A DNA stretch of 29,095 nt from Candidatus Altarchaeum sp. (GCA_018260615.1 JAGWDQ010000111.1:1-29095); one strand, 5' to 3'; numbered from the stretch's first letter, positions 308 through 28,938 are shown. Notes: a model not told the origin generated them from the letters alone. Made by a program: numbers and translations.

Positions 308-2617
308 CTACATTGTAGCAAGACTAATGTATTTTTTATCACCGTCATATTCTATTTTGTATATCTGCAAGTCATCTTTAAATTCATCAACCCACCCGCC
401 GTCCAATGGAAAGTCATTGGTTTCTTTTATTGAAATTATATATTGAACACCATATTTGTCCATAAATTGTCTTACTAGATGTATAAAAAGTTGTAAATTA
501 TCCTTGTCTAAGTTATTGGCGGCTTCATCTATTATAACTGGCAGTCTAAAATATACTGCTAAAGCAGTTAGTGCAGCAAGGCTGAAAAATGATCTTTCTG
601 CTCCACTTGGGTGGGTGATCTCCTTGTTTTTATAAATAATCTTGCTAACTAATAAACTGTCCTTGTTCATTTCTATACACGCATTCACCAAGCATTCAGT
701 TATGAGTAGGTCATTTATTTCAACTATAATTTCTTGGATTCCATTTATAATCTCTTGTTCGTCAAAAATATTATCTAAGATTGTAGTAAGAATTTTGTCG
801 AGCCTATTTGATACAATAGGAACTTTTATCAAATCAATATATTCAGCATCAATTTTTTCCCATTCCCTTCTTTTTTCCTTTGTTAAATCAGTTAGTATGT
901 TCTTATAAACATGAATGCCAACCTCCATATTTTTAAGTTTCATTAGACAAGAATTTATTTCACTAATATCAAATTCCTCTATTATTATACTTAATGGTTT
1001 CAACTTTTGGTTGATTTCATTTTTATACTCTAATTTCTTAGATTGTATGGTTCCCTTTACTTCTGATATGAATGCATCTACTTCGTTAAAATCGGCTTTT
1101 TTAGGGATTTTTATATCTTTTCCTGATGAAAATAAAAGTAATTTTTTTGAGACACTGACAATCCAATCTAAAATTTCTTTATCCTCTTTATTTTTATTAT
1201 TTTGCATGGTCGCACGGTACCTCTCAAGACAAACCATTTCATCACGGAATTTTCGGAATAATTTATCAGAATCTTCTTTATTTTTATATATTGCCCCTAA
1301 ATTAGATATGCTTTTGTTCAACTCGTTAACATATTCTCTTTTTTCCTTTTCTGGCCCTTCTGGAATAGGTTGGGGGTTTATTTTAGAAAAAGAGGAATCC
1401 TCTTTAATAAGTTTTAAAGGAATAATTGCATGAATCGCATCATCTATTTTTACTAAATCTGCTTTAATCCTTAAAGTTCCTTCCATAATATTGACATCTT
1501 TATCTAGAATGCATAGAACTTTTTCTTTCTCACTCTTAAATTTTTGGGGATTGTCCAATTTGATATCCAATCCTTCTTTTTCAGCAAGGGTGACTGCCTG
1601 ACGATAAAGAGTTTGCGCGTCTTTGAGTTTTTGATAAGTATTTTCCACTTGTTTATTTAAATTATTGTCACAAAACCTTTTAATTTCGTTTGGTGGTGAA
1701 ATTTCGATATTTTCCACTTTTATTAAATCATCAATAAGTTGTTTTAAAAGATATTCGTCATCTGAAATATCCTTGATGCTATTAAAACGATTTTTAATAT
1801 TTTTTTCTTCTAAAAGCAATCTTTTTAAATCATTCAAATAATTATTTTTAATCATATTGTCTTGGAAAAATTCTTTTAAATCTCCCTTCTCAACACTATC
1901 TACATATATCCTTATATCTTCAGAAACACGATATATTTTTTCAGACGTTTGACTCGGTTCATATTTATCGAGATCACTTAAATTAATAGTTATGTTTTTT
2001 AGTTCATCTGTTAATTTAGAAATAAATAGCTTATACTCCCTTTCTATTGAAGATATTCTTGCGGAAGATCCTTCTTTTAGCTTTTTTATACGTGTTCTGA
2101 AATTATTAGATAAGTCTTTTGCATTTCCAATTTCCTTAAACAACTCTCTAATTACGGCGTCAATATTCCTCTCGTTAAGTTGATCGAAACCCATTGCACT
2201 ATCTGGAGCAAAAAGAGCATTAAGTAAACCTATCTTTAACTCTTTATTTAAAGTGTCGTTGAACTCAAGTTTAGTATTTCCACAATTTTCTTTTCTCTCT
2301 ATCCAGCAAGCATCTCTATAGCGATCTATTTCTCTTTTAATCTTATATTGCTTATTATTATGTTCAAATTCTACAACTATCTTTCCAACACCTTTAGAAG
2401 GTGCCATTTCATTCGATGTTACAATCTGTAATTCATCATATCCTGATTTTTTCCCAAATCTTATTGTCTTGCTAAGAAAAGCGTATCTAATAGTGTGGAT
2501 TATATTGGACTTTCCTGATTTATTTGATCCGTAGATAACAACAATTTTATTATCAGGAAATGCCATTTCGCCTTGCAACTCCATTATATTTTCAAATTGT
2601 GCATTTATTAGTCTCAT
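308..2617 (-). CDS. Rad50/SbcC-like SMC-family ATPase without a CXXC zinc hook
   Basis: N-terminal Walker A GSNKSGKS, long coiled-coil middle, C-terminal signature-like PSGAE and Walker B/D-loop PVIIDEAANNLD; ATGA overlap (2614-2617) with upstream Mre11-like gene. Confidence 0.85.
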   Translation of the reverse strand: MRLINAQFENIMELQGEMAFPDNKIVVIYGSNKSGKSNIIHTIRYAFLSKTIRFGKKSGYDELQIVTSNEMAPSKGVGKIVVEFEHNNKQYKIKREIDRYRDACWIERKENCGNTKLEFNDTLNKELKIGLLNALFAPDSAMGFDQLNERNIDAVIRELFKEIGNAKDLSNNFRTRIKKLKEGSSARISSIEREYKLFISKLTDELKNITINLSDLDKYEPSQTSEKIYRVSEDIRIYVDSVEKGDLKEFFQDNMIKNNYLNDLKRLLLEEKNIKNRFNSIKDISDDEYLLKQLIDDLIKVENIEISPPNEIKRFCDNNLNKQVENTYQKLKDAQTLYRQAVTLAEKEGLDIKLDNPQKFKSEKEKVLCILDKDVNIMEGTLRIKADLVKIDDAIHAIIPLKLIKEDSSFSKINPQPIPEGPEKEKREYVNELNKSISNLGAIYKNKEDSDKLFRKFRDEMVCLERYRATMQNNKNKEDKEILDWIVSVSKKLLLFSSGKDIKIPKKADFNEVDAFISEVKGTIQSKKLEYKNEINQKLKPLSIIIEEFDISEINSCLMKLKNMEVGIHVYKNILTDLTKEKRREWEKIDAEYIDLIKVPIVSNRLDKILTTILDNIFDEQEIINGIQEIIVEINDLLITECLVNACIEMNKDSLLVSKIIYKNKEITHPSGAERSFFSLAALTALAVYFRLPVIIDEAANNLDKDNLQLFIHLVRQFMDKYGVQYIISIKETNDFPLDGGWVDEFKDDLQIYKIEYDGDKKYISLATM

Positions 2618-3903
2618 TTTTTATTTAGCACCCAATATTGTTTGATTTTTGAAAGAAATTCATTCATGTGCTCTTCTATTATGCCACTTCTTTGAGCGGA
2701 TAGTTGAAGAGATTTTTCAAATAAAGCAATTCTTAACACATCTACTTTTTTGGATAAGTTTTCATTAGTAAAAATTTCATCAAAAAGATCTTGGGCCAAT
2801 TCTTTTTCATTAATTTGGAGTGAATTCAGCACTTTATTTTCTAGTTCATTAATATCCATAATTTTGTCAATGCCTTTTAGTTCAATTGATTTTTTTGGTT
2901 CATCTGTTCGCTCAACAAAAATATCTAAAGTACGTATCTTCTGATATTTATTTGTTTCTTTTCGAATAGTATCTTTAAAAGTGACTCCTTTTGCCGAGAC
3001 CCATACCCAAAGTAATTCTGGACGGATTTCATTTTCTAATAACTTAGAATATACTTCGTTAATTCCTTCAATAACATCATTGGGATTATTTCCGTTAATA
3101 TTTACATGAATTATCTTTTGTACGGGCGTGTATTTCTTGAACCTTGTTTTATTACCCTCCAAGATTACATAACCAAAAGGAGAATCCTTTTTTTTAGGCA
3201 CATCTAAGTCACCAGGCCAATGGTACTCAATCATATAATTGCACTTCAATTTATGAGACGGGATTAAAGCAGGTAAAGAATAAAGATTAGTGCTGCCGAA
3301 CAATCCACAATCATAGGAATGCATATGCCCATTAAAAATAAAATTAAATCTTTTGCTTAGCTCCCGAATAATCTCATTTTTTAATCCAGGTATACCTAGC
3401 ACTGGCAAGGTTTCATGCATAATAAGAATATCACCTTTTGATGGAATTTTTTCTTCTGGAATTTCATAATAACCTCGTCGGTAGTTAGATTCCATGAAAT
3501 AAATTCTAAAATCTCCAACTTTCTCTTCTTTGTTTCTTACAAAATGAAAATTACTTCCTAAACTATTTTCAAGCTCTATTAATATAGATGACGAATCATG
3601 ATTTCCTTTCAGCGCATAAACTCCATATTTTGTGCCATTAATCAGTTTCCTCAATTCGTCTTGAATGTTAGGCCAGTACTTAGCAGCTTCCGCATCCGTT
3701 ACAAAATCACCGCTTTTCTCCAGTTGATCAAACATATCCCCAGCAATTATAATTACATCAGGTTTTTCTGTGAGTATTTGATCAACAACTTTTCTAAAGT
3801 TTTCAATAGAAACTCTACCTTCGAATGGTATAAAACATCCATCCTTAAAACGCTTAGCATGTATTAGTAGATGAGCATCACTTATCATTAATATTCTTGT
3901 CAT
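2614..3903 (-). CDS. Mre11/SbcD-like metallophosphoesterase nuclease
   Basis: All five phosphoesterase motifs in order: SDAH, GDMFD, GNHD, MHE, GHMH; directly upstream of the SMC-like ATPase. Confidence 0.88.
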   Translation of the reverse strand: MTRILMISDAHLLIHAKRFKDGCFIPFEGRVSIENFRKVVDQILTEKPDVIIIAGDMFDQLEKSGDFVTDAEAAKYWPNIQDELRKLINGTKYGVYALKGNHDSSSILIELENSLGSNFHFVRNKEEKVGDFRIYFMESNYRRGYYEIPEEKIPSKGDILIMHETLPVLGIPGLKNEIIRELSKRFNFIFNGHMHSYDCGLFGSTNLYSLPALIPSHKLKCNYMIEYHWPGDLDVPKKKDSPFGYVILEGNKTRFKKYTPVQKIIHVNINGNNPNDVIEGINEVYSKLLENEIRPELLWVWVSAKGVTFKDTIRKETNKYQKIRTLDIFVERTDEPKKSIELKGIDKIMDINELENKVLNSLQINEKELAQDLFDEIFTNENLSKKVDVLRIALFEKSLQLSAQRSGIIEEHMNEFLSKIKQYWVLNKK

Positions 3904-5941: not shown

Positions 5942-6205
5942 ATATTTTCAAAACTTTGCGATTTTGAAAATAACCTCACTCCGTTCGGATATTTTCAAAA
6001 CTTTGCGATTTTGAAAATAACCTCACTCCGTTCGGATATTTTCAAAACTTTGCGATTTTGAAAATAACCTCACTCCGTTCGGATATTTTCAAAACTTTGC
6101 GATTTTGAAAATAACCTCACTCCGTTCGGATATTTTCAAAACTTTGCGATTTTGAAAATAACCTCACTCCGTTCGGATATTTTCAAAACTTTGTGTTTTG
6201 AAAAT
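5942..6205. repeat. Perfect tandem array of a 47-bp unit: 5 full copies plus one partial variant
   Basis: Unit ATATTTTCAAAACTTTGCGATTTTGAAAATAACCTCACTCCGTTCGG starts at 5942, 5989, 6036, 6083, 6130; partial at 6177; each holds an 11-bp stem TATTTTCAAAA/TTTTGAAAATA with 8-nt loop. Confidence 0.97.
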
Positions 6206-6610
6206 TACACTTAAAAGTATTATTATTCCCGCAATCGCAAAGTATATGCTTATTGTCCTCAACGGAATTATAATCATATCCATTGATTGTGAAAAATCCA
6301 CACTTACCGGAAGAAATCCGGAATAATTTCCGACAAGCAATCCGGTAAACAACAGAAATGCAATTGAAAGCATCCCGAGTGCACAGGCAAGCAAAGTAAC
6401 TCCTGTGTATTTTTTCCATATTTTGTTTTTTATAATATAAACAACCCTTACGACAAACAAAATCCCTAATATTATGGAAAACACCTTTACTATTGTCCCG
6501 GTTCCCGGAACTGATGGCTCTGTTCCCAAAATATATGGCTGAATACTTACAATTACAATTACGGCAGTGCTTATTATTAGTCCCCAAAGCAAAATTTTAT
6601 TTATATCCAT
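6164..6610 (-). CDS. Small integral membrane protein (about 4 TM helices) downstream of fdhB
   Basis: Four hydrophobic stretches, no His residues; co-oriented 107 bp after fdhB; last codons and TGA stop lie inside the tandem array. Confidence 0.7.
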   Translation of the reverse strand: MDINKILLWGLIISTAVIVIVSIQPYILGTEPSVPGTGTIVKVFSIILGILFVVRVVYIIKNKIWKKYTGVTLLACALGMLSIAFLLFTGLLVGNYSGFLPVSVDFSQSMDMIIIPLRTISIYFAIAGIIILLSVIFKTQSFENIRTE

Positions 6611-6717
6611 TTTAAAAATTTTATAGATTTTTATAAATATTTGAGCGTTAGCGAAATTATTTTAAATTTTATTTAATTTTAAATTTTATTTTTTAAATTT
6701 GAATTTTAAATTTAATT

Positions 6718-7470
6718 TTATTTTTCACCTTCCTGCACCTTTTTCTTTCTATCACCATAAATTTTTAATCCGACTAATGCCGCTCCCCCCAATATACTTA
6801 AAACACCAACCGGATGCTTGATTGCATCCAAAACATTTGCTATGTTATGAATCTCTGCAACTTTAAAGTCAATGTTTTCAAAAGGCATATTTGAAGCATA
6901 AATTACAGATGAATTATAACTATTATTTACTCCGCCACCATAAACATACTTAAATTTAGATGCGTATTGTTTCATTTCATCAATATCCCCGAATTTTAAT
7001 GCCTTTGAAGGACATGCTTTTACACAAGCAGGATCTAACACCGGATTTTGCGTAATCCTGTCATAGCATAATGTACACTTCGCTGGCTTTTTATTTTCAT
7101 CCATAACCGGAACATCAAAAGGACAAACCTGCGCGCACAATCCCACACCTTCGCACTTGTTTCTGTCTACCACAACCGCACCGTTATCATATTTTACTAT
7201 TGCATGAGCGGGACAGTTCTTTACACATTGCGGGTCATCGCAGTGCATACACTGTCTTTTATAAAAATTTTTAATGTCTTTTTCATGTATGTAGGTAAAT
7301 TCATTATCACTAAATTTATCCGTGCCTTTTGCCTTCTCAACTGCCTTTCTTACTTCGTCCTGATTCCTGTTTTCAATCTTTGGTTCTAATTTATTCCAGC
7401 TCTTGCATGCCACAATACAGGATCTGCATCCGGTGCATTTGTCCAAATCAATTAATAACGACTTTGTCAT
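6718..7470 (-). CDS. fdhB: Formate dehydrogenase iron-sulfur (beta) subunit, FdnH/DmsB-like, with C-terminal membrane helix
   Basis: Motifs CTGCRSCIVAC, CMHCDDPQCVKNCP, CEGVGLCAQVCP, CTLC..PACVKACP; C-terminal hydrophobic helix; directly follows fdhA. Confidence 0.88.
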   Translation of the reverse strand: MTKSLLIDLDKCTGCRSCIVACKSWNKLEPKIENRNQDEVRKAVEKAKGTDKFSDNEFTYIHEKDIKNFYKRQCMHCDDPQCVKNCPAHAIVKYDNGAVVVDRNKCEGVGLCAQVCPFDVPVMDENKKPAKCTLCYDRITQNPVLDPACVKACPSKALKFGDIDEMKQYASKFKYVYGGGVNNSYNSSVIYASNMPFENIDFKVAEIHNIANVLDAIKHPVGVLSILGGAALVGLKIYGDRKKKVQEGEK

Positions 7471-7537
7471 TTTAAATTTTACTTTAAATTTTTAAATTTT
7501 TTAAATTTTGTTTTATTTAAATTTAATTTTTTGACTT

Positions 7538-10500
7538 TTATGCCTTTTCAATATTACATAACGCAACTTTATATTCCGGAATATTTGCATTTGGATCAAG
7601 TGCATCAATAATTAGGTAATTTGCAGAATCACCCGTTGATAAGCCCTTAAATCCCCAGTGCCATGTTACTGCAATCGTCTTTTCATTAACCCTTCCGTTA
7701 ACCCTTGCTCTGACTCTGATGCTTCCTCTCTTTGTTGAAATTTTTACATAATCGCCATTGTTTATTCCTTTTTCATTTGCTAATTTCTCATTAATTTCGC
7801 AAAATGGCTCCGGCTCTAATTCAACTAAATAAGGGATATTTCTTGTTGTTTGTCCCGCGAGCATGTGTTCCAGTAGTCGGAAAGTTGTTAAAACATAAGG
7901 AAAGTCCTTAACATCTCCGATTTCAAGTTCCCCTACATTGCTCGTGTTTTTCTTTGGATCCGCATCAAATTTCACATAAGGAGGATATTTTTTGGATATA
8001 TCCGGATATGGTGATTCTATTGGTTCCATGTGTTTTGGCAGGAATCCGTCTTTCAAAGGCGAAGTTAATGCCCCCAACGCTGCAACACCTTCTTTTGTCA
8101 AAAATCCATCGTTCGGAATAAAGTATGAGCCCTTTTTGTTTGGCCTGTATGTATCGTCCTTAAATTTATATTGAATTTCCAGATGTTTTCCCTTTTCCGT
8201 ATGAACATAATACAAAACATGCCTGTTTACCGGCCATGTCCATCCCCATCCCGGATAAACACCTTCACCGTTATCGCTGACATTGTCTCTTCTCTTTGCA
8301 TAATTTGTTCCATTGTTTATCACTTCATCGCCAAATTCGTCTGTGCTTCTCGTTTCAATAACGCCCGAATATTTTCCAATTACATCGTAAATCCAGCAGC
8401 CCTTCATCACTTCCTTTAACACATCTTCTGCGACTTTTTCGCAATCAAAATTTGTATTATTGCCTTTTAAATATCCGTAATTAAAAGCATGATTAAATGC
8501 TTCCTGCGGACTGTTAAATTTATTGCCGTCAAAATTTAGTGCTCCTTTTTCATACAATTTTTCTGCTAAATTTATTAAAATTTCCAAATCGGATTTTGAC
8601 TCATACAATGGCTCTGTTGCTTTATATCTCCACTGAACACATCTTCCGCTGTTAGTTACGCTTCCGGCTTTTTCTGCAAATGTGCTTGCAGGCAGTAAAT
8701 ATGTAGAACTGTTTTCATTTCTTTCTGCTGCTGCACTTTCCGATTCAAAAATATCCACGACAACAAGTAATTCCAGATTTTTGAATGCCTCTTTAACAAT
8801 ATTTAAATTTGGCGATGAAACCATTGGATTTTCCCCGAATATTACCAATGCTTTTACTGCTCCATCTTTTGCCTTTCTGAGCATAACCTGGCTGCTGTAT
8901 CCGTTTCCTTTTGGCAATTGTTCATAATTTATTCCCCACAGGCCAGTTCCTTTTCCGCCTTTATGCCCCGAAAATTTGTCTTCCGGAAAATTGTCGGTTA
9001 AAATATTAAAAATTTCATTTTGCCTGAATTTCCCAAGTCGTGCTTTTCCAAAGGAACTCCAGTAAGCCCCTAATTTCTGATCTTTTTGCGGAACACCTAA
9101 ATAAGCAGGCAATATGTGGCATAATCCCATATCTGTTGCTCCCTGAACATTACTGATTCCCCTCATTGCATTTATTCCGCCGCCGGGAATTCCGATATTT
9201 CCCAAAAGCAACTGCAAAACAACATAACTCCTTATATATTGTACTCCTGTCGTATGCTGTGTTGTGCCCATTGAATACAAAATAGTCACGGGTTTATTTT
9301 TCGCAAATATTTCTGCTGTTTGTTTTATCGTTTCCTTTTCAACCCCTGTAATTTTTTCAACCTCTTCCGGAGTATAAGGGGAAATGACTTCTACTAGCTT
9401 GCTGAATACCGTATCTTTATTTGCCTTCATTTCCTCTGCTGTCCAAACACCGGCATAAGCTCCATAACAGTCCCCATAGACCTTTACACCTGCAGGAATC
9501 TTTGAAATTTCTTTGTCCTGTTCATCTAAAATTTCTACCTCTCCCGATGCCTTTTCATTTTCTATTTTACTCACAAAAGAAAATTTATTTTTTGAAAGAA
9601 CAAAATTTTTCCCGTCCAGAGAAATTTCTTCAAAAGGTATATCTTTTCCGTTTTCATCCTTTCCTGTTATCTTTATTTTAATTGCCTTATCATTATCACT
9701 GCCTGATCTTATTTTTAACTTTTTATTCTCCGGCAATGCACTTATCTTTATCTCAATTAATTTGCCTTCATTATTCAGTAAGAAAGGAGTATTTGTTCTG
9801 TTCATTAAATAAATTTCATCATACCATTTGTTTTCAATTATTTCTTTGCATATCCCGTTTATTAATGCGATGTCTGTTCCGGGACGATGCTGCATGTAAA
9901 TATCCGACATATTTGCCGTTTTTGTATATCTCGGGTCTGCAACGATAATTTTTGCCTCATTCTTTTCTCTTGCTTCCGTAACCCACTGAAATCCAACGGG
10001 ATGATTTTCAACAATATTGCTTCCGATAATAAAAACACATTTGGCATTTTTAATATCCACCCAGTGATTTGTCATTGCACCTCTTCCGAATGAAGGAGCT
10101 AAGGCACCAACAGTTGAAGCATGGCATTTTCTTGCCTGATGTTCTATGTTGTTTGTACCGAATATCCTCGCAATTTTTTGAATTAAATAGTCCTCTTCGT
10201 TTGTAGCGTGAGAGCATCCGTAAAATCCAACGGCATCCGGCCCGTATTTAGTCCTTATTGCTTTTAATTTTTCAGAAATTTCATTGTATGCATCATTCCA
10301 TAAAATTTTTTCCCAATGTCCGTTTCCTGTTTTCTTTGATGGCTCTTTAACTCTGAAATCATTATATATCTGCTGAATTGCTGCATTACCTTTGCTGCAT
10401 AAACTTCCCCTGTTTATCGGGTTTTCTTCGTCTCCTTCTATATGAACAACTTTATTATCTTTAACATAAATTTTCATTCCGCATCCGACGGCACAATACG

Positions 10501-10693
10501 GACAAACCGAATGAAAAATTTTTCCTTCAATTCCCGGAGAGGTCCCGGACTCTTTTGTTTTTGTTTCACCTGCTCCGACAGTATTAGAAACAGCAATTCC
10601 TGCGGTAACAGCTCCGCCAATTTTTAAGAAGTTTCTTCTTGTAATTTCAAAATCGCCTTCTATGCTCTCTGTTTTTGTTTTTAATTTTTCCAT
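7538..10693 (-). CDS. fdhA: Tat-exported Mo/W-bis-PGD formate dehydrogenase catalytic (alpha) subunit, FdnG-like, Cys-type
   Basis: Twin-arginine signal ITRRNFLK; [4Fe-4S] motif CPYCAVGC...CSKG; active-site HQARKCH; RGISNVQG; C-terminal molybdopterin-binding domain. Confidence 0.93.
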   Translation of the reverse strand: MEKLKTKTESIEGDFEITRRNFLKIGGAVTAGIAVSNTVGAGETKTKESGTSPGIEGKIFHSVCPYCAVGCGMKIYVKDNKVVHIEGDEENPINRGSLCSKGNAAIQQIYNDFRVKEPSKKTGNGHWEKILWNDAYNEISEKLKAIRTKYGPDAVGFYGCSHATNEEDYLIQKIARIFGTNNIEHQARKCHASTVGALAPSFGRGAMTNHWVDIKNAKCVFIIGSNIVENHPVGFQWVTEAREKNEAKIIVADPRYTKTANMSDIYMQHRPGTDIALINGICKEIIENKWYDEIYLMNRTNTPFLLNNEGKLIEIKISALPENKKLKIRSGSDNDKAIKIKITGKDENGKDIPFEEISLDGKNFVLSKNKFSFVSKIENEKASGEVEILDEQDKEISKIPAGVKVYGDCYGAYAGVWTAEEMKANKDTVFSKLVEVISPYTPEEVEKITGVEKETIKQTAEIFAKNKPVTILYSMGTTQHTTGVQYIRSYVVLQLLLGNIGIPGGGINAMRGISNVQGATDMGLCHILPAYLGVPQKDQKLGAYWSSFGKARLGKFRQNEIFNILTDNFPEDKFSGHKGGKGTGLWGINYEQLPKGNGYSSQVMLRKAKDGAVKALVIFGENPMVSSPNLNIVKEAFKNLELLVVVDIFESESAAAERNENSSTYLLPASTFAEKAGSVTNSGRCVQWRYKATEPLYESKSDLEILINLAEKLYEKGALNFDGNKFNSPQEAFNHAFNYGYLKGNNTNFDCEKVAEDVLKEVMKGCWIYDVIGKYSGVIETRSTDEFGDEVINNGTNYAKRRDNVSDNGEGVYPGWGWTWPVNRHVLYYVHTEKGKHLEIQYKFKDDTYRPNKKGSYFIPNDGFLTKEGVAALGALTSPLKDGFLPKHMEPIESPYPDISKKYPPYVKFDADPKKNTSNVGELEIGDVKDFPYVLTTFRLLEHMLAGQTTRNIPYLVELEPEPFCEINEKLANEKGINNGDYVKISTKRGSIRVRARVNGRVNEKTIAVTWHWGFKGLSTGDSANYLIIDALDPNANIPEYKVALCNIEKA

Positions 10694-10815
10694 TTTAATG
10701 TAGAGTAAATTTAAATCTTTTATAAATTAAAATTTAAATAAATTAAAATAATTTAAATAAATAATTAACATTAAATAAATAATAATTAATAACAAATAAT
10801 TAACATTAAAATAAA

Positions 10816-10930
10816 TAATTGATGTTTTTGCGTTTTGAAAGCATACTGATAAATTTAAATAAAGTGAGTTTTGATGAAACTTTTACAAAAAACTTTTGTG
10901 ATCAAATCCATAAAACGCAAAAGTCAATTA
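10816..10930. other. Imperfect long inverted repeat in the divergent fdhA/tatA intergenic region
   Basis: TTTTGCGTTTT (10826-10836) pairs with AAAACGCAAAA (10912-10922); outer TAATTGA/TCAATTA also complementary. Confidence 0.5.
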
Positions 10931-11000
10931 AACAAATTAAATTTAAATAAAATTAATTACTAATAATAAATTTAAAACAATTAAAAATCAAAAATTTAAA

Positions 11001-11237
11001 ATGTTTGGTTTGGGCTGGCAGGAATTATTAGTTGTATTGTTGATTCTTCTCTTGGTTTTTGGGGCGGCAAAACTTCCGGAATTAGCAAAATCATTGGGAA
11101 AAGCAAAAAAGGAATTTGAGAAAGGCATAAAAGGAGAAGAAGAAAATAAAGAAAAAGGAAAAGAAGAGTCCGGTAAGGAGACCTCTAAAAGTGCATCAGA
11201 GTCCGCAAAAAAGGATGCACCTAAATTTGAAAATTAA
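11001..11237 (+). CDS. tatA: Twin-arginine translocase subunit TatA
   Basis: [42 protein letters not shown] is the canonical TatA N-terminus. Confidence 0.96.
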
Positions 11238-11258
11238 TAAAACTGACACTATTGCAGG

Positions 11259-12086
11259 ATGGATGAAAAGGCAGAAAATGCAGAAAAAAAAGAGCCAATA
11301 TGGAATCATTTGCAGGAACTTTTGAACCGTCTCAAAATAATTCTTGTATCAATCATTCTTGTTTCTGTTTTTGTTATGCTTATTCCGTCTTCCTTTTTTC
11401 CGTTTTTTGATGACAATAATTTAAATTTAACCCAAAATATTTCAAATAATGAGACAAACAATTATTTATATGACACATTTACTTCCTCTTTGTTAAAAAA
11501 GATAGAAAAAGACATTCTTCCAGATGGTGTTTCGCTGATTGCCGGCTCGTGGACAAGTTTGCTTGAGGTTTATTTTTTGCTTTCCATCGCAATCGCCATT
11601 GTTCTTTGCTTTCCCATAATTGTGTATGAAATTTATAAATTTTTAGAACCGGCACTTTATAAAAGAGAGAGAAATTTATTTATAAAATTTTTTGTTGCTT
11701 CCATATTACTCTTTATTTTTGGAATTGCTCTGGCATACTTATTAATTTTACCCATAACCTTTAAAATCCTTATGTTTTTTGTCAATATGCTCGGAGTTCT
11801 GCCTTTAATATCCATTGATAATTTTGTTTTTTTGGTTGTGGCAATGCTTTTGGGAACCGGATTCGTTTTTACAAGCCCTGTACTCTTGTATTTTTTAATA
11901 AAAACAAAAATTTTAAATTATAACTCAATTGCATCAAGAAGAAAATATGTTTATGCTGCACTCCTGATAGTAATAATGATACTGACACCTGACCCGACAA
12001 TCGTGACAGATGTTATACTGATAGTACCTCTTATTGTCCTGTTTGAAATAGCATTGTATATTGGAAAAAGAGGTGCTGATTTTTAA
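11259..12086 (+). CDS. tatC: Twin-arginine translocase subunit TatC
   Basis: HLQELLNRL, EIYKFLEPALY, TPDP motifs; six-TM pattern; follows tatA. Confidence 0.95.
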   Translation: MDEKAENAEKKEPIWNHLQELLNRLKIILVSIILVSVFVMLIPSSFFPFFDDNNLNLTQNISNNETNNYLYDTFTSSLLKKIEKDILPDGVSLIAGSWTSLLEVYFLLSIAIAIVLCFPIIVYEIYKFLEPALYKRERNLFIKFFVASILLFIFGIALAYLLILPITFKILMFFVNMLGVLPLISIDNFVFLVVAMLLGTGFVFTSPVLLYFLIKTKILNYNSIASRRKYVYAALLIVIMILTPDPTIVTDVILIVPLIVLFEIALYIGKRGADF

Positions 12087-13335: not shown

Positions 13336-16254
13336 TTAAATAAATTTTACATTTGCCATCCTTCTGACAATTGTCGGGTCAGCAATCTTTCGCGGCTTCC
13401 AGTTATTACATTTTAAAATTTCCTTTATCTCATCAGACATCGCCATAGGAATATCCCCTTCCACCCGTATAAATTTATCCAAATCATCCGGAAACGTATA
13501 TTTTCCCTTTCCTCCGTATTTTCTGTAAATATCAATATAATGTGACAATTTAATACTTCTTCCTTTTGTATTGTCGCCCGGCCTTAATGTCAGCTTTGAA
13601 ATCAGGAGCATAACTTCTTCCTTTGTATTTGCAGCATAACTTAAATGTAGAGGAGCCGGCTCACTGTCAAAAATTTCCCCGTTTGCAGTATTATAACATT
13701 TCCACCTGTCAAGCAGTCCCAAATTTTTCCGCCCGTAGTCAAAAATTTCACTGTTATTTTCGTAAGGATTTTCAACATCTCCTCTTAAGTCCTTCCTGTA
13801 TTTTACTCCCTGCGGCCCCAATATTACCGGAATTCCTAACCGGTTCACTCCGTTTCCAATTGCTACTGCTTTTGCAGACATTGCCCCCCAGGCCAGACCG
13901 ACAGCTCCTACTCTGTTAAGTATGTAATCGGCGATTTCCTCAAAATTTGCCCTTAAATTTCTCTTTGCGAATATATTTGCTACTTTCATTGCCGCTCCCG
14001 TAATGTGGGAATTTGCAACGCAGGAACCGACATTGACTATATTTCCCGGTCCGAAATTTCCCCTGTATTTTTCAAACAGATTATGCGTCCCGGAATAATC
14101 ACTTGCCGCCGCCATTGCAGAACATCCGCTGACTACAACGATAAAATTTCTCTTTATAAATTCCTCCAAAATTTCACCTAATTCCTTACCTCCATTGGGC
14201 CATATTGAACATCCGACAGCAGCAAGAATACCCGGAATCTCTCCGAAAACAATTGGCTGCCCGACATTTCTTATTTCAACATCCTGTATTGCTCCTCTTC
14301 CGGGAGAAATTTTTGCTTTATCGTTTGCCAGCTGGTCTTTATAAATTTCGGTAAATACGGATACTATGGGAATATTCCCGGGACACCACGATTCGCATCT
14401 TCCGCAGAATATACATTTTCCAAGTGATTCCAGAATTTCTTCTTTTGTTAAAAATTTAATGTCTGCAATTATATTTCTTCTTTCTCTTTCAACCCTGACA
14501 ACTTCTCTGATATTTATTTTTTTCGGACACTTTTTTTGACATAATCCGCACATTGCACAATCTTTCAGGATGGAAATTTCCTTTGCACCAATTTCTTTTC
14601 CTTCTTTAATTGCAGATATTAAATCAGAAATTTGAATATCGTTCGGACAATTTTTATTGCAAAGTTTGCATTCAATACAACTTTTTACCTCTTCGGTTAT
14701 TTTGTAATATTCATTCAGGCCTTTAATTAAAGAGTAATATGTTTCTTTTCCAATATTCCTTTTAGTTAATTCCGAACTTTTTTCATTTGAAATTTTTTGT
14801 AAAACATTGTATATGTATTGTCTTGAACAGCCAACTTCTTTTGCCAGCGCGGTTACAGTGTATTCCTTTTGTTTCAGTAAATTTATTATTTTATCTGCTA
14901 CAATATGCTCTTTATCTTTATGAACCGTGTTTTCTGTCTCTTTGTTTCCGGTTACTTCTTCACTTGTTTTACATTCCTCTGCCTTATTGAAAATTTGGTT
15001 TATGCTTTGAATGATTAGGTGGTTATCAACACCAACTGGACACGCCTTTTTACATAATCCGCAGTTAATACAATCGTTTGTTTTTTTTATTGCTCCTTCG
15101 TATAAATTTAAATTTTCTGTTTTTTCATTTTGCACATTTTTCTTTCTTTCCTTAATCTTCATAGCAACCTGGACAGCAACCTCTCCCAACTTTTCAAGGT
15201 CATGCAAATAACATCCCGGAATTTCCCCGCTCATTAATTTTTCAATAATTTCCTCGCTATTTTCGCCGCTTAAATCCTCTAATCCGGAAACATATTTATC
15301 GGTAGTAGCAATTAAAGGCGTTTTTAATTTCTTTAAATTTTCCAGCAGGTCAACTCTTATACATTGCTCATCGCTGATAACAACATCTGCAATTCCGGAT
15401 CTTATGTAGGGAAGCTGATAAGATAAAGGACCGACAATTTTTGCCCCTGTTCTGTATCTTCCCAAATCAAGTGCGGTGCAGCATATCCCGCAAATTTCAA
15501 CATCTTTATTATTTGCTTCCGCATAATCAATGGCAGAGGCACCTGCAAGAACATTGTGACCGACACATAGAATTATTGGTTTTTCTTTATTTACACTTCC
15601 GAAACCAAATTCGGCTAATTTCGGATTTGGCTCTCCTTTTGGAAAATTTAAGGCGGCAATCTGTGCCAGATCACAAATTTCCATTCCGACATGGTCAAGC
15701 ATTCCCGCATGTAATGCCTTGCTGTTGTAATCAAAGTCAGATGACTCTGTTCCGACATTAAGGCAGGAAGCAAGTTTTGTTATTTGCTCTTCAAAATAAT
15801 TTATTCCTCTCTCAAGGTCACCGATTGTTTCCGGCTTATATCCGCATACAAGCTGAATATTAGGCGCTCTTACTTCGGTATTTTCGGCTGTGTCCAATGG
15901 AAAATTTCTTCCGAATTTTTCTATCAGTGCGTGTACTAAATGCCTTCCGTGTGCAGCATGTGCCGATGCTCCGGTTATTGCTAATTGCAGTCCTTCCCTT
16001 GCTAAATGTCTTTCTAATGTAATGCCGCATGCTCCTTTCCTGTTGTCTGATAAATCGCAGAGACCTAAAGCACAAAACTGGCACTGCCGGATAAAACCGT
16101 AATATTCAGGTTTATATCTGTTCAGCAATTTCAAATCCCAGTCCCGCAAATCGGCAATATCCGGATTTGGTGTTGGTCCTTCCAACTCATTGTATTCTCT
16201 TTCCTCTTCAACCTCTCCGATTGAAATTTTTAAATTTTTGGTTTTGATTGTCAT
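13336..16254 (-). CDS. cdhA: ACDS-type CO dehydrogenase alpha subunit (apparently catalytic copy) with 4 ferredoxin motifs and an internal winged HTH
   Basis: AHAAHGRH, C-cluster ligand motifs VGHN, GICCT, DEQC, VGCS, SGCS, GSCV and conserved Lys (MSAKA); B-cluster CQFCALGLC...GAC; motifs CINCGLC, CIECKLC, CAMCGLC, CIFCGRC. Confidence 0.95.
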   Translation of the reverse strand: MTIKTKNLKISIGEVEEEREYNELEGPTPNPDIADLRDWDLKLLNRYKPEYYGFIRQCQFCALGLCDLSDNRKGACGITLERHLAREGLQLAITGASAHAAHGRHLVHALIEKFGRNFPLDTAENTEVRAPNIQLVCGYKPETIGDLERGINYFEEQITKLASCLNVGTESSDFDYNSKALHAGMLDHVGMEICDLAQIAALNFPKGEPNPKLAEFGFGSVNKEKPIILCVGHNVLAGASAIDYAEANNKDVEICGICCTALDLGRYRTGAKIVGPLSYQLPYIRSGIADVVISDEQCIRVDLLENLKKLKTPLIATTDKYVSGLEDLSGENSEEIIEKLMSGEIPGCYLHDLEKLGEVAVQVAMKIKERKKNVQNEKTENLNLYEGAIKKTNDCINCGLCKKACPVGVDNHLIIQSINQIFNKAEECKTSEEVTGNKETENTVHKDKEHIVADKIINLLKQKEYTVTALAKEVGCSRQYIYNVLQKISNEKSSELTKRNIGKETYYSLIKGLNEYYKITEEVKSCIECKLCNKNCPNDIQISDLISAIKEGKEIGAKEISILKDCAMCGLCQKKCPKKINIREVVRVERERRNIIADIKFLTKEEILESLGKCIFCGRCESWCPGNIPIVSVFTEIYKDQLANDKAKISPGRGAIQDVEIRNVGQPIVFGEIPGILAAVGCSIWPNGGKELGEILEEFIKRNFIVVVSGCSAMAAASDYSGTHNLFEKYRGNFGPGNIVNVGSCVANSHITGAAMKVANIFAKRNLRANFEEIADYILNRVGAVGLAWGAMSAKAVAIGNGVNRLGIPVILGPQGVKYRKDLRGDVENPYENNSEIFDYGRKNLGLLDRWKCYNTANGEIFDSEPAPLHLSYAANTKEEVMLLISKLTLRPGDNTKGRSIKLSHYIDIYRKYGGKGKYTFPDDLDKFIRVEGDIPMAMSDEIKEILKCNNWKPRKIADPTIVRRMANVKFI

Positions 16255-22534: not shown

Positions 22535-22760
22535 TAATTAAAAATCAAAACAAATTAATTTATAGGGGTGATTTATTTTTGCAGACATTTTTTATACTCC
22601 TCCGGAATATCTTTTTCACTTCTCACAAAATTTTTTATATCATCCGGAATTTCTTTCGTTTTATCAGCCGCATATTTCCTCTAAATTTCAATATAATCTG
22701 CTATCTTTTTTGCTCTTGCCTCTTCGCTGTCAAAATTTCTGAAAACTAATTTCGGAATTA
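22535..22760 (-). pseudogene. Duplicated 3' end of the second cdhA paralogue plus 30 bp of its downstream sequence
   Basis: 22571-22760 aligns without gaps to 23887-24076 (175/190 identical, one TAC>TAG stop); 22535-22564 identical to 23728-23757. Confidence 0.92.
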
Positions 22761-23888: not shown

Positions 23889-26510
23889 TTATTTTTCTAT
23901 GCTGTTTTTATACTCCTCCGGAATATCTTTTTCACTTCTCACAAAATTTTTTACATCATCGGGAATTTCTTTCGTTTTATCAGCCGCATATTTCCTGTAA
24001 ATTTCAATATAATCTGCTATTTTCTTTGCCCTTGCCTCTTCGCTGTCAAAATTTCTAAAAACCAGTTTCGGAATTAATAACATCGCTTCCTCTTTTGTCT
24101 TTGCTGCAATACATAAATGCGGAAATGCAAAATTTTTTGGCGAAATTTTCTTAATGACTTCATTATAATTTCCGTTATAATCATCTTTGCTGTAATCAAC
24201 AACTATGTCTCCCCTGAGTTCCCTTCTGTATTTTATACCCTGCTGCCCGAATATTACCGGAATTCCCAGCCGCATCAATCCCTGTGCAACTGCAAAATTT
24301 CCCTGCGTTGTTGCCCCCCAAAACATTGCAGCAAGACCAACTTTGTTTGCGATGTGAGCTGCAATTTCGTCAAAATTTCCAACAGGGCTTTTGTTGTTCT
24401 TTTTACCTGCCATTTCTATTATCTTTTCAATTAAATGAATGCCTGCTGATGCCGAACCCAGATTTATTAAATTTTCATGTTTTAAATTGCTCTCTACAAT
24501 TGAAATCGCCGCATCTCCCGCTGTAAATACTATAAAATTTCTGTTTAAAAATTCCTCTAAAATTTCTGCTAATTCCTTTGCTCCGTTCGGAAAATTTGCG
24601 TCGCCTAAAACCAAAAGAACCTGCGCATCTTCGGAAATTGATATATCCCGGGAAAGTGTAATTGCTCCCTTTTTATTCATAAATTTTTCCTTACCTATTT
24701 CGGCAAATACAGATACGATGGGAATTTGTTTCGGACATTGTGATTCGCACCTTCCGCAGAATATACATTTTTCAAGGGCATTCAAAATTTCTTCTTTTGT
24801 TAAAAATTTAATGTCTGCAATTATATTTCTTCTTTCTCTTTCAACCCTTACAATTTCTTTGATGTTTATTTTTTTCGGACACTTTTCCTGACATAATCCG
24901 CACATTGCACATTTCTTTAAGATGGAAATTTCCCGTGCTTTTATTTCTTTTCCTTCTTTTATTGCCACTATTAAATCAGCGATTTGAATATTATTCGGAC
25001 AGTTTTCGGTACAGTTTCCGCATTCGGTACATTCTTTTATTTGCCCGGTTATTTTGTAATATTCGTTCAGTCCTTTAATTAAAGAGTAATATGTTTCTTT
25101 TCCAACATTCCTCTTTGTTAATTCGTTTCCTTTTTCCTTTGAAATTTTCTGTAAAACATTGTATATGTACTGCCTTGAACAGCCAATTTCTTTTGCTAAT
25201 GTTGTTGGTGTGCCTTCCTTTTGCTTCAGTAAATTTATTATCTTGTCTTTATTTTTAAGGATATTTTCAGTTGCTTTATTTTCGGCATTATCTTTTTGTT
25301 CCGCATTTGACAATTTCAAATTGAAAATCCGGTTTATACTCTGAATGATTAGACGATTATCAACATTAACAGGACATGCCTTTTTGCATAATCCGCAGTT
25401 AATACATTCACCCGTTCTTTTTATTAATTCGCTATCTGTATAATCTACAGCGGGATTTTTTAAATTTCTGTCTTTTTTATTCACAACAGCAAGCATTTCA
25501 ACAACCTCTGCCAGTTTCCCGCCGTCTTTTATGTAACATCCTGAAATTTCTCTGCTCATTAACTTTTTAAAAATTTCAACCGCACTTAAATTGCTCAAAT
25601 CTGCAAGACCTGCCAAATTTCTGTTTGAGGTCGCAATTACAGGAATTCCGTATTTCTTTGCTTTTTCAACTACATCTGTTCTGACATTTCCTTCGCCGAG
25701 CACAACAACATCCGCAATTTTTAAAGTTGTATCTAACGCAAAATTTCCTTCTGTTTTCACCCGAAAGTCATATTCGCCCGAACCAAGACGGATAATTTCA
25801 AAATTTGCATTTGAATTAATGATTTGAGCAATATTAGGAACACAATCTCCAATAATTAACATACATGCTTTGCTTTGAGCAACCGCACCAAATCCAATCT
25901 CAAATTTGTTCATATTACTGCCTTTATTATTGTTTAAAAATTTCCTTAAAATTTCATAAATTTCCATTCCAAGCAAAGATACCATTCCTGCATGAAAAAT
26001 TTTGCTGTTAAAGTCAAAATCACTCGCTTCCTGTCCCATGTGTGTTGCCGAAATCAAATGAACTATTTGCTCATTCGCATATCTTAATGCCTTCTTTAAA
26101 TCACCCGTTGTTTTCGGTTCATATCCGCACAAAAGGTTTATAAATGCGGTTAAATTTTTGTCTTCTAAATTTAACTCTGCAACATAAGTGTGTTCCTTAA
26201 TTATTGCATCATTTAGTTCGCATACTCTCGCAATATAAGATGAGGCACCGGCAATTGCAGTAACTAATGCCTCTCTTGCCATCTGCACACTTAACCGCAT
26301 TCCGCACGCCCCCATCCTGTTTTTTGACAAATCGCACGGACCAAAAGCACAGTATTGACACTGCTGAATGAATGCATAATACTTTGGTTTAAATCTTCCA
26401 AGTAAATTTGCATCCCAGTTTCTCAAGTCCGTTACATTTGGATTTATAAATTTTCCCGTTCTTTCCAGTTCTTCTCCGCCTTTAATTAAAATTTCCGGTT
26501 TTTCTTCCAT
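23889..26510 (-). CDS. CdhA paralogue lacking all C-cluster ligands; keeps B-cluster, 4 ferredoxin motifs and winged HTH
   Basis: Colinear with cdhA, but GHN>GDC, GICCT>RLGSG, EQC>EGN, VGCS>LGDA, SGCS>AGDA, GSCV>GSAS, HAAHGRH>YIARVCE; intact 873-aa ORF. Confidence 0.9.
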   Translation of the reverse strand: MEEKPEILIKGGEELERTGKFINPNVTDLRNWDANLLGRFKPKYYAFIQQCQYCAFGPCDLSKNRMGACGMRLSVQMAREALVTAIAGASSYIARVCELNDAIIKEHTYVAELNLEDKNLTAFINLLCGYEPKTTGDLKKALRYANEQIVHLISATHMGQEASDFDFNSKIFHAGMVSLLGMEIYEILRKFLNNNKGSNMNKFEIGFGAVAQSKACMLIIGDCVPNIAQIINSNANFEIIRLGSGEYDFRVKTEGNFALDTTLKIADVVVLGEGNVRTDVVEKAKKYGIPVIATSNRNLAGLADLSNLSAVEIFKKLMSREISGCYIKDGGKLAEVVEMLAVVNKKDRNLKNPAVDYTDSELIKRTGECINCGLCKKACPVNVDNRLIIQSINRIFNLKLSNAEQKDNAENKATENILKNKDKIINLLKQKEGTPTTLAKEIGCSRQYIYNVLQKISKEKGNELTKRNVGKETYYSLIKGLNEYYKITGQIKECTECGNCTENCPNNIQIADLIVAIKEGKEIKAREISILKKCAMCGLCQEKCPKKINIKEIVRVERERRNIIADIKFLTKEEILNALEKCIFCGRCESQCPKQIPIVSVFAEIGKEKFMNKKGAITLSRDISISEDAQVLLVLGDANFPNGAKELAEILEEFLNRNFIVFTAGDAAISIVESNLKHENLINLGSASAGIHLIEKIIEMAGKKNNKSPVGNFDEIAAHIANKVGLAAMFWGATTQGNFAVAQGLMRLGIPVIFGQQGIKYRRELRGDIVVDYSKDDYNGNYNEVIKKISPKNFAFPHLCIAAKTKEEAMLLIPKLVFRNFDSEEARAKKIADYIEIYRKYAADKTKEIPDDVKNFVRSEKDIPEEYKNSIEK

Positions 26511-27288: not shown

Positions 27289-28683
27289 TTACTTTGTCTT
27301 CACATCCAGCCCTCCTCCGGTCCAGTTTTTCCGTAAAAAATCACCCAATCCCCCGGAGTCCTGCGGACCAACTAAAATTTCCCATTTTGTCGCGTCCTCT
27401 ATTGCTCCTTTTATTCTTCCGACATATCCCGGAACAACAAGTTTTCTGTGCTTCACTAAATTTTCAACCTTGCTGTTATCCATCGCTTCCTTTATTTTAT
27501 CCGCTGTTAATTTTCCGCCCGCAAGAGCAACGAGAACAGCTAATCCCTCCGTATCCATGACAAGCAGCCAGCAGGAAATTTTTGCACTTTCAACATCCCC
27601 CGCAACGGCAAAATATGTCAGGGCAAAATTTGAAGTTATCAATACGGGAGAATTTTCATCCGGTGTTCCAATCGCATACATTTTTGGCTCTGTTGTCGGA
27701 TTTACTCTCGGGTCAGCATAAACATTCATCCTCAAGGTCAGTGTTTCCATAACGCTGTAAATTTCATTAAAGTGAAATGCAATCAGGCCGACAAATCTGT
27801 CCAAACACAAAGAAATTGACAATGCCTCAAAAACCGCTGATGTTTCGCCTAAATTTAAATTTTTTAATCCGACCGTTGAAATCATTACGGGAAAAGAAAA
27901 TTCCTTAACATCCTTTATCGCCGCCTTTCTTAAAATTTCAAGTTTGTTAATAACGGAAGATAAATTTTCAAAGTCAAATCCGGGGTCAATAACAATATCG
28001 GTAAATCCTGCATTCATGAGGGTTTTTGTCATTGAGCCGATTTCATCCAGATTTTCCGAATGAACAGCCAGAGGACAATTGTATTTTCTTGCTAATTCAG
28101 ACATCTCTTTAAAATTTTCCTTTGTTGCCGCATAAATCAAAGGCCTTCTGTCTTTTGTTATTTCAAGGGCGGCATCCATAATTTCCGGATTTAGGGTGCA
28201 CAACATTATGAATTTGTCAAAATTCTGGCAAACCGTATTTACCGTCTTTAAAAATTGAGCCTTGTCGTTTGTCGCACATCGTAAACAAATTCCGTCTAAC
28301 CGTAAAATTTTTCCGACTCTTTCATACCTGTAATTTTTGACAAAGTCAATACGGTTTTTAATGGTATTTTCATCCATCGCGTCGCTAATGTCAAGCACCA
28401 TTGCCGCCGGATTGAAAAATTTAAGGTCGTGCCTGTACATCACTTCTTCTCCGCCAATAGTAATTGCCTGCTCATCTTTTCCGATTACAACTTCCCGGAC
28501 GGGAGGAGTTATAACTTCTCTTAATTTTTTTAGTTTGTCTCCTTTTAACTGCACACAGTGTTCTGCCTTTACTCCTCTTTCCATTAATTTCATGGCGAAT
28601 GCCATACATGTTTTCTCGGTGCATTCTCCGCAATTTGTTTTCGGGAGTAATTTATAAAGCTGTAACGCACTTAATCTTGCCAT
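27289..28683 (-). CDS. cdhE: Corrinoid iron-sulfur protein large subunit (ACDS gamma, CdhE/AcsC)
   Basis: YKLLPKTNCGECTEKTCMAFA Fe-S domain; SPVLITSNFALTYFAVAGD, DTEGLAVL, ILVGPQDS motifs. Confidence 0.96.
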   Translation of the reverse strand: MARLSALQLYKLLPKTNCGECTEKTCMAFAMKLMERGVKAEHCVQLKGDKLKKLREVITPPVREVVIGKDEQAITIGGEEVMYRHDLKFFNPAAMVLDISDAMDENTIKNRIDFVKNYRYERVGKILRLDGICLRCATNDKAQFLKTVNTVCQNFDKFIMLCTLNPEIMDAALEITKDRRPLIYAATKENFKEMSELARKYNCPLAVHSENLDEIGSMTKTLMNAGFTDIVIDPGFDFENLSSVINKLEILRKAAIKDVKEFSFPVMISTVGLKNLNLGETSAVFEALSISLCLDRFVGLIAFHFNEIYSVMETLTLRMNVYADPRVNPTTEPKMYAIGTPDENSPVLITSNFALTYFAVAGDVESAKISCWLLVMDTEGLAVLVALAGGKLTADKIKEAMDNSKVENLVKHRKLVVPGYVGRIKGAIEDATKWEILVGPQDSGGLGDFLRKNWTGGGLDVKTK

Positions 28684-28938
28684 TTTATATTAGGTTAGGT
28701 TATTATGATTTTTATTAAAGGTATGTCTGAAATTTTAAATTTTTCACTGATTTACTTTTTTCTTTTTCGCCCGTCGTTTTTCTTTTTTTAAAAGAAAAAG
28801 GCAGAAGGTGTAACGCACTTAATCTTGCCATTTTATATTTTTTGAAATGTCTAAATTTATAATATTGAAATTTTTAAATTTTTTTGAGAGTGCATATTTT
28901 TCTCTTTTGGTAACGCACTTAATCTTGCTATTTTATAT
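28661..28938 (-). repeat. Three copies of a 29-31 bp segment spanning the cdhE start codon
   Basis: TGTAACGCACTTAATCTTGCCATTTTATATT at 28661-28691 and 28809-28839 (identical); third copy 28910-28938 with ATG>ATA. Confidence 0.92.

Follow-up and report, generated by a model that had tools for sequence, protein, structure and literature searches.

The cdhA1 gene and its product

The window analysed here (the whole 29,095-nucleotide stretch of DNA, from genome G000) contains cdhA1, a gene at 13336-16254 on the minus strand whose 972-aa product was identified by profile, fold and ligand comparison as a CODH/ACS alpha subunit. The names of its homologs place the organism in Candidatus Altarchaeum. 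The protein scored 937 bits against the NCBIfam model TIGR00314 cdhA (cut-off, 781), and in Foldseek its predicted structure matched solved archaeal CODH alpha subunits with E values of 1e-62 to 1e-64. The C-cluster histidine and five cysteines are kept (H233, C258/259, C298, C682, C711 and C745), as are the catalytic residues H102 and K795 and all four B-cluster cysteines (C58/61/66/76). Judged by this ligand set, cdhA1 encodes a catalytically intact CdhA. The D-cluster cysteines are replaced by I55 and Q59, and the protein falls outside group A-1, which is defined by a Type I D-cluster motif plus an epsilon subunit.

Four CxxCxxCxxxCP motifs begin at aa 395, 526, 566 and 614 (15072 to 14380). 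The canonical first (aa 395-406; 15037-15072) and canonical last motif (aa 614-625; 14380-14415) enclose an extra 4Fe-4S pair (aa 526-577; 14524-14679) that is a published feature of group A-5; all lie on the minus strand. The architecture of cdhA1 recurs in independent assemblies, and contigs from two other runs span it, which rules out an assembly artefact. A 1130-aa frame in genome G006 was discarded as an artificial join of argS and cdhA spanning an N gap.

A winged helix-turn-helix inserted in CdhA

The original prediction placed a winged helix-turn-helix (wHTH) between the first and second of the four motifs, at aa 454-520. These residues correspond exactly to 14895-14695, and both HTH profiles and fold agree with the assignment, with the domain boundary better set at aa ~447-512 (14719-14916, minus strand). 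The insert scored 27.3 bits against Pfam HTH_7 (cut-off, 23.8) and also matched HTH_28, HTH_11 and TrmB; HTH_11 was matched by all 19 aligned family members, and HTH_5 weakly by seven of the 19. When the insert was folded alone (with 19 relatives), the model comprised three helices (residues 2-13, 18-25 and 29-42) followed by a two-strand beta-hairpin wing (48-52 and 55-59) with a pLDDT of 84.7, the helix-helix-helix-wing order of a wHTH and the outcome that the prediction had anticipated. The full-length model keeps the three HTH helices at a pLDDT of ~70, with the wing modelled as a helix.

The nearest structures to the isolated insert are SmtB, NolR, SqrR and CzrA (TM 0.72-0.81, E 5e-4 to 2e-3), and the domain is thus best described as having an ArsR/SmtB-like fold. 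It differs from the ArsR/SmtB repressors with which it shares this fold in that it lies below family cut-offs (17.8 bits against 55 for NF033788), has no recognisable metal site and is not a free protein. The centromere-binding wHTH protein AspA is also matched, no better than generic ArsR proteins.

Conservation of the domain peaks at the recognition helix (aa 477-491; 14782-14826, minus strand) and the wing, even though the CdhAs compared are only ~50-55% identical. In an alignment of 19 sequences from three families, the S, Q, Y and Y of the recognition helix are invariant and the R nearly so. These conserved positions are the ones that contact DNA in wHTH proteins. Among four Altarchaeum genomes dN/dS was 0.20 for the wHTH domain, while the catalytic core gave 0.11-0.12 and the extra ferredoxin 0.28; the value for aa 474-488 of the recognition segment (0.09) was the lowest in the protein, but covers only 15 codons. 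Values for the domain were 0.20 in the active Altarchaeum copy, 0.19 in the dead Altarchaeum copy described below and 0.15 in the f7 copies. Such figures, which are simple pairwise counts from few sequences, indicate that the wHTH is under purifying selection.

The domain is preceded by a variable, disordered linker (aa 426-449; 14908-14979, minus strand; pLDDT<50). Three other Altarchaeum CdhAs (L049:361-3516, L050:1679-4924 and L086:10001-13204) carry a further ~80-aa domain at this site, immediately ahead of the HTH. It is a promiscuous repeat for which we saw no Pfam name, and G000 has it in at least nine other, unrelated ORFs.

Distribution and history of the inserted domain

CdhA is present in 21 of the 61 Altiarchaeota genomes and the HTH in 10, belonging to three families, always within CdhA and at one insertion site. 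A profile of the HTH run against 5.8 billion proteins gave 18 matches among longer proteins, all of them CdhA, and every strong database match lies inside an Altiarchaeota CdhA. When 50% representatives were searched with the HTH, only weak generic HTH matches were returned apart from P0008. No copy was found outside cdhA across the 61 genomes, and no HTH-bearing CdhA outside Altiarchaeota in protein-database searches. A search for the CdhA-HTH architecture, which had been proposed as a check, therefore restricts it to Altiarchaeota CdhA, with no spread found beyond the phylum. A mobile passenger was rejected as an explanation, there being no other copy in G000 and none outside CdhA in the phylum.

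In a tree built without the insert, the HTH-bearing CdhA cores do not form one group; a single origin of all of these cores was rejected (AU p 9e-5, for a group named after the tree had been seen and with the root on one long branch). The pattern requires at least four changes and, as read from these sequences, is consistent with repeated loss of an ancestral HTH or with a single transfer. Losses are seen within Altarchaeum in P0016 and in G001, where neither cdhA paralog has the HTH, and among f2/f7-type genes in G019 and P0045, which sit nested among HTH-bearing sequences in the tree. Repeated loss, including within Altarchaeum, means that the HTH is dispensable. The second CdhAs of G021 and G024 (L058:5822-8122 and L059:1528-3831) were excluded as losses: they are A-1-type, with D-cluster cysteines and one Fe-S motif only, are flanked by polyferredoxin genes and were probably acquired.

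The HTH and the doubled ferredoxin are found both together and apart. Altarchaeum has the HTH with four motifs, families f2 and f7 (G004, G034 and G042-G046; seven genomes) have the HTH with two, families f4, f6 and f8 have four motifs and no HTH, and several others have neither. By this distribution the two features assort independently, at odds with the proposal that the HTH is wired to the enzyme through extra Fe-S clusters.

The doubled ferredoxin has been described. Group A-5 of the clade A Ni-CODHs, with two extra Cys4 motifs, was published by Inoue et al. 2019 (PMC6344411) with four Altiarchaeales members, one of them BWK75_00480. cdhA1 belongs to this group: like A-5 it lacks D-cluster cysteines, has an intact C-cluster and acid-base residues, and has its E and F motifs separated by two extra Cys4 motifs. 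BWK75_00480 (our P0007) is 88% identical to cdhA1 and bears the HTH, and the other three A-5 members do not. The paper and its supplements (PMC6344411) list BWK75_00480 in a table and make no mention of an HTH in a CODH, nor does the A-5 description include the two-motif HTH-bearing CdhAs of f2/f7 or the dead paralog. The claim that the whole architecture is undescribed is thus upheld for the HTH, of which we found no description in the literature searched, and falls for the ferredoxin doubling. An insertion resembling the extra ferredoxin occurs at G000:C44:17428-19383, where a NuoC/D-type subunit has an inserted 4Fe-4S pair 53% identical to it; a common source is possible on this resemblance.

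In searches with working controls, the CdhB epsilon subunit (PF02552) was found in none of the 61 Altiarchaeota genomes, including the 21 with CdhA. D-cluster cysteines are also missing from nearly all Altiarchaeota CdhAs. Together, these sequence comparisons suggest an epsilon-free ACDS in Altiarchaeota.

A catalytically dead paralog shares the module

A second gene, cdhA2 (23889-26510, minus strand; 873 aa), was characterised by ligand comparison and dN/dS. All six C-cluster ligands and the catalytic histidine are gone, and on these losses the product is catalytically dead; the B-cluster cysteines, the four Fe-S motifs and the wHTH (25071-25244, minus strand) are kept. Identity to cdhA1 is 48% overall, 75% over the ferredoxin-HTH module and 88% over the 67 aa of the wHTH. 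The paralog is specific to Altarchaeum, where every genome examined has it in tandem with cdhA1 and upstream of it. Purifying selection acts on the gene, most strongly in the N-terminal helical domain (dN/dS, 0.12) and in the HTH. Seven tracts of 20-63 bp, all within aa 395-619, are identical between the two genes, the longest being 63 bp at 14434-14496 in cdhA1 and 24786-24848 in cdhA2. Identity is also greater between the paralogs of one genome than between orthologs, and these two observations together point to gene conversion between cdhA1 and cdhA2. A CdhA1-CdhA2 heterodimer, or a regulatory role for cdhA2, may be inferred.

Groups A-4 and A-6 (PMC6344411) also consist of CdhA homologs in which C-cluster ligands are substituted, and like cdhA2 they adjoin ACS genes. 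They are bacterial and keep four C-cluster cysteines, whereas cdhA2 has lost all six ligands and retains four Fe-S motifs and the HTH. Between cdhA2 and cdhA1 lie inserted toxin-antitoxin genes (PIN and MNT-HEPN), among them a 194-bp copy of the cdhA2 3' end (22567-22760; 92% identical).

A candidate operator in families f2 and f7

The operon of these two families reads cooT-cdhA-cdhC-cooC-cdhD-cdhE-fwd, and upstream of cooT lie two to three direct copies of an 11-bp box with the consensus AYRTGTMAACY. Two of them, 42-43 bp apart, flank a TATA-like element, one ~10 bp upstream and the other ~25 bp downstream, where it covers the expected transcription start site; most loci have a third box 62-64 or 106 bp further upstream. 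For each such region, two copies would arise by chance with a probability of 5e-5 to 3e-3, the pattern having been chosen after the data had been seen. A phylum-wide pattern search returned the pair once per genome in seven of seven HTH-bearing f2/f7 genomes, including the promoter of G044, which lies on a separate contig and was previously unseen. The pair is also present in three loci fetched later, L083/84, L085 (from a close relative of G042) and L189.

In total, the box occurs at all 10 HTH-bearing f2/f7 loci and at none of 14 HTH-less cdhA loci, which include G019 and P0045 and, for a few, a promoter that may lie off the contig. Both HTH and box track lineage, and the lineages are related; this association amounts to about one independent contrast, whose genes have also left the operon. 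Paired boxes were absent from f7 genomes without CdhA, and no conserved regulator gene adjoining the operon was found. Looser pairs in G001, G005, G033, G040, G050 and G052 were rejected as lying in coding DNA, being wrongly oriented or having one weak box, and those in G013 as a CRISPR-like array. RbkR operators were found by a comparable approach and then confirmed (PMC5397151).

The half-site of the box also recurs as a tight palindrome of 21-22 bp, a single one in each of G042-G045, at non-cdh places (L138:3805-3895, L139:2325-2415, L151:1835-1860 and L140:4099-4120). One copy precedes a TATA box and three (G043-G045) lie between convergent genes; three are just past EF-1beta, which converges with cdc6 in G043 and G045. 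No such palindrome was found in G004, G034 or G046. The sites in G042-G045 could be additional targets, or a sign that some other dimeric factor is at work. HTH-less cdhA promoters (L054, L057, L061, L056 and L011) share a different, AT-rich direct repeat that is Fur-box-like; Fur was rejected as its binder, a true Fur being present in only three of 61 genomes, none with CdhA.

Altarchaeum has no box at a fragmented operon

The box is missing from Altarchaeum (none of four genomes, including G000) despite a near-identical recognition helix. In G000 it was absent from the cdh, fwd, cooC, cooT and fdh promoters examined. A weight matrix built from 19 f2/f7 sites gave no hit at 18 cdh/fwd/cooC/fdh upstream regions of G000, and genome-wide no credible pair, with nine scattered intergenic singles. 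The regions upstream of cdhC and cooT in G000, G001 and G003 have no box, nor is there one upstream of the contiguous RACo-cdhD-cdhE-cdhA2-cdhA1 cluster of the SM1 genome.

The cdh operon of G000 is fragmented over six or more contigs. Its upstream remnant in the window is cdhE, the corrinoid protein large subunit gene (27289-28683, minus strand), whose upstream 412 bp contain no candidate box; at ~28820-28900 the first cdhE codons appear duplicated twice, a sign of local promoter rearrangement. The hairpin repeats were rejected as HTH targets, having 292 copies genome-wide. Of the probes suggested originally, the hairpins are thus genome-wide repeats, and the cdh/fdh promoters of this genome showed no candidate operator.

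CdhA as a possible autoregulator

The best reading of these observations, which we hold with reasonable though guarded confidence, is that Altiarchaeota CdhA is a trigger enzyme that autoregulates its own operon. The protein combines an enzyme intact by its ligands with a conserved predicted DNA-binding domain, the pairing that marks a fused trigger enzyme. In the structural model, an ArsR-like winged helix sits on a flexible tether within the loop that joins the E-cluster motif to the F-cluster motif. In f2 and f7 this domain probably binds the 11-bp boxes observed around its own operon promoter, and the likeliest effect would be negative autoregulation by available CdhA dimer. Repression is favored because one box copy covers the start region; the position of the upstream box resembles RbkR sites thought to activate (PMC5397151). 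The simplest signal would be the abundance of uncomplexed CdhA. Fe-S loading or redox of the adjoining E and F clusters is a possible modulator, plausible because the wHTH interrupts the ferredoxin module. The Altarchaeum wHTH probably retains DNA binding, to a site that has diverged or is a different one, given the purifying selection on it and its sharing with the dead paralog by gene conversion; that the domain still has a DNA target there we rate at about even chances. The idea of a trigger enzyme, already raised in the original prediction, is thus backed by a candidate operator in relatives and not by the cdh/fdh promoters of this genome. A fuller version, in which the Wood-Ljungdahl CODH of Altiarchaeota is the transcription factor of its operon and senses its own Ni/Fe-S loading or redox through the ferredoxin module, with the role split in Altarchaeum so that the dead paralog is the regulatory or electron-carrying half of an asymmetric dimer, appears rather doubtful.

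A different account of the domain in this genome's lineage deserves serious weight, although we lean against it: the HTH may be a relic of ancestral autoregulation that has lost its target, kept solely by the needs of folding and by gene conversion between paralogs, which is compatible with autoregulation in f2/f7. The missing box in four Altarchaeum genomes, the fragmented operon of G000, the losses in G001 and P0016, gene conversion and a loop that also takes a promiscuous repeat domain all fit such a relic, but the dN/dS of the recognition segment (on its 15 codons) is under what folding alone usually needs, and that of the HTH is below that of the extra ferredoxin. It is unlikely that a separate lineage-specific factor owns the box and that the wHTH of CdhA serves protein interaction or structure, for example as a module that docks an electron partner in place of the epsilon subunit and D-cluster. 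Conservation falls on the DNA-contacting residues of wHTH proteins, and f7 genomes without CdhA have no paired box. The loss of CdhB and of the D-cluster cysteines does imply a remodelled electron-exit surface, but HTH-less CdhAs lack both as well, so the HTH is not required as a replacement; the occurrence of the HTH without the box in Altarchaeum, and of half-site palindromes that another dimeric factor could equally explain, suits a separate factor.

It is improbable that the HTH is switched by CO or redox state acting by way of the two extra Fe-S clusters. In Altarchaeum the extra ferredoxin pair comes directly after the HTH, and homogenisation between paralogs spans the whole module, which would suit such coupling, but the linker N-terminal to the HTH is disordered in the model and extra clusters are absent from the only lineages that have a candidate operator; since these f2/f7 proteins have two motifs only, the extra clusters cannot be required for the role of the HTH. 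We give still less credence to a wHTH that binds nucleic acid without promoter specificity, or at one chromosomal site, and so tethers the enzyme to the nucleoid. One palindrome per genome between convergent genes in G043-G045 and the matches to AspA would suit tethering, but most box copies stand at a fixed distance around one TATA box, the AspA matches are not superior to generic ArsR ones and the palindrome is missing from three of the seven genomes.

Comparison with known systems

To our knowledge, no Ni-CODH is known as a DNA-binding regulator, and CODH genes are normally under the control of separate proteins such as CooA and RcoM. In group A-1, operons are controlled by separate regulators such as MreA (PMC3419521). 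The A-1 CdhAs of Methanosarcina and Ethanoperedens (3CF4, 9C0Q and 8RIU) share with cdhA1 their fold (TM 0.85-0.88 by target) and catalytic ligands, but combine a D-cluster and an epsilon subunit with two Fe-S motifs, and carry no HTH. The insert is absent from solved CdhA structures, in keeping with the earlier description of Methanosarcina-type CdhA as having two motifs and no HTH.

If the inference holds, CdhA would work like the fused trigger enzymes RbkR, BirA, NadR and PutA, as a putative member of that class. It would share with them (PMC5397151) the fusion of an enzyme to a DNA-binding domain, and candidate operators that lie at genes of the pathway, its own among them; RbkR is itself an archaeal, wHTH-based trigger enzyme (PMC5397151). 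In those proteins the DNA-binding domain is terminal and the pathway is cofactor or amino-acid metabolism, whereas the predicted domain of CdhA lies inside the ferredoxin module of a Ni/Fe-S carbon-fixation enzyme. No published description of the CdhA HTH, the box or the dead paralog was found in the open-access literature searched, which also held nothing relevant on a CODH with an HTH or autoregulation. A self-regulating CODH, if true, would bring trigger enzymes into the core of carbon fixation, and a phylum of primary producers known only from uncultured subsurface archaea would gain a first named pair of regulator and operator. This ACDS architecture is also of structural interest, for its conserved dead paralog and for lacking the epsilon subunit and D-cluster throughout the phylum.

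Other genes in the window

At 6164-12086 the window encodes a Tat-exported formate dehydrogenase, which is unusual for an archaeon; it comprises FdhA (with a twin-arginine signal), FdhB and a small membrane ORF, and is divergent from tatA-tatC. An Mre11-like phosphoesterase and a SMC/Rad50-like ATPase form a pair at 308-3903.
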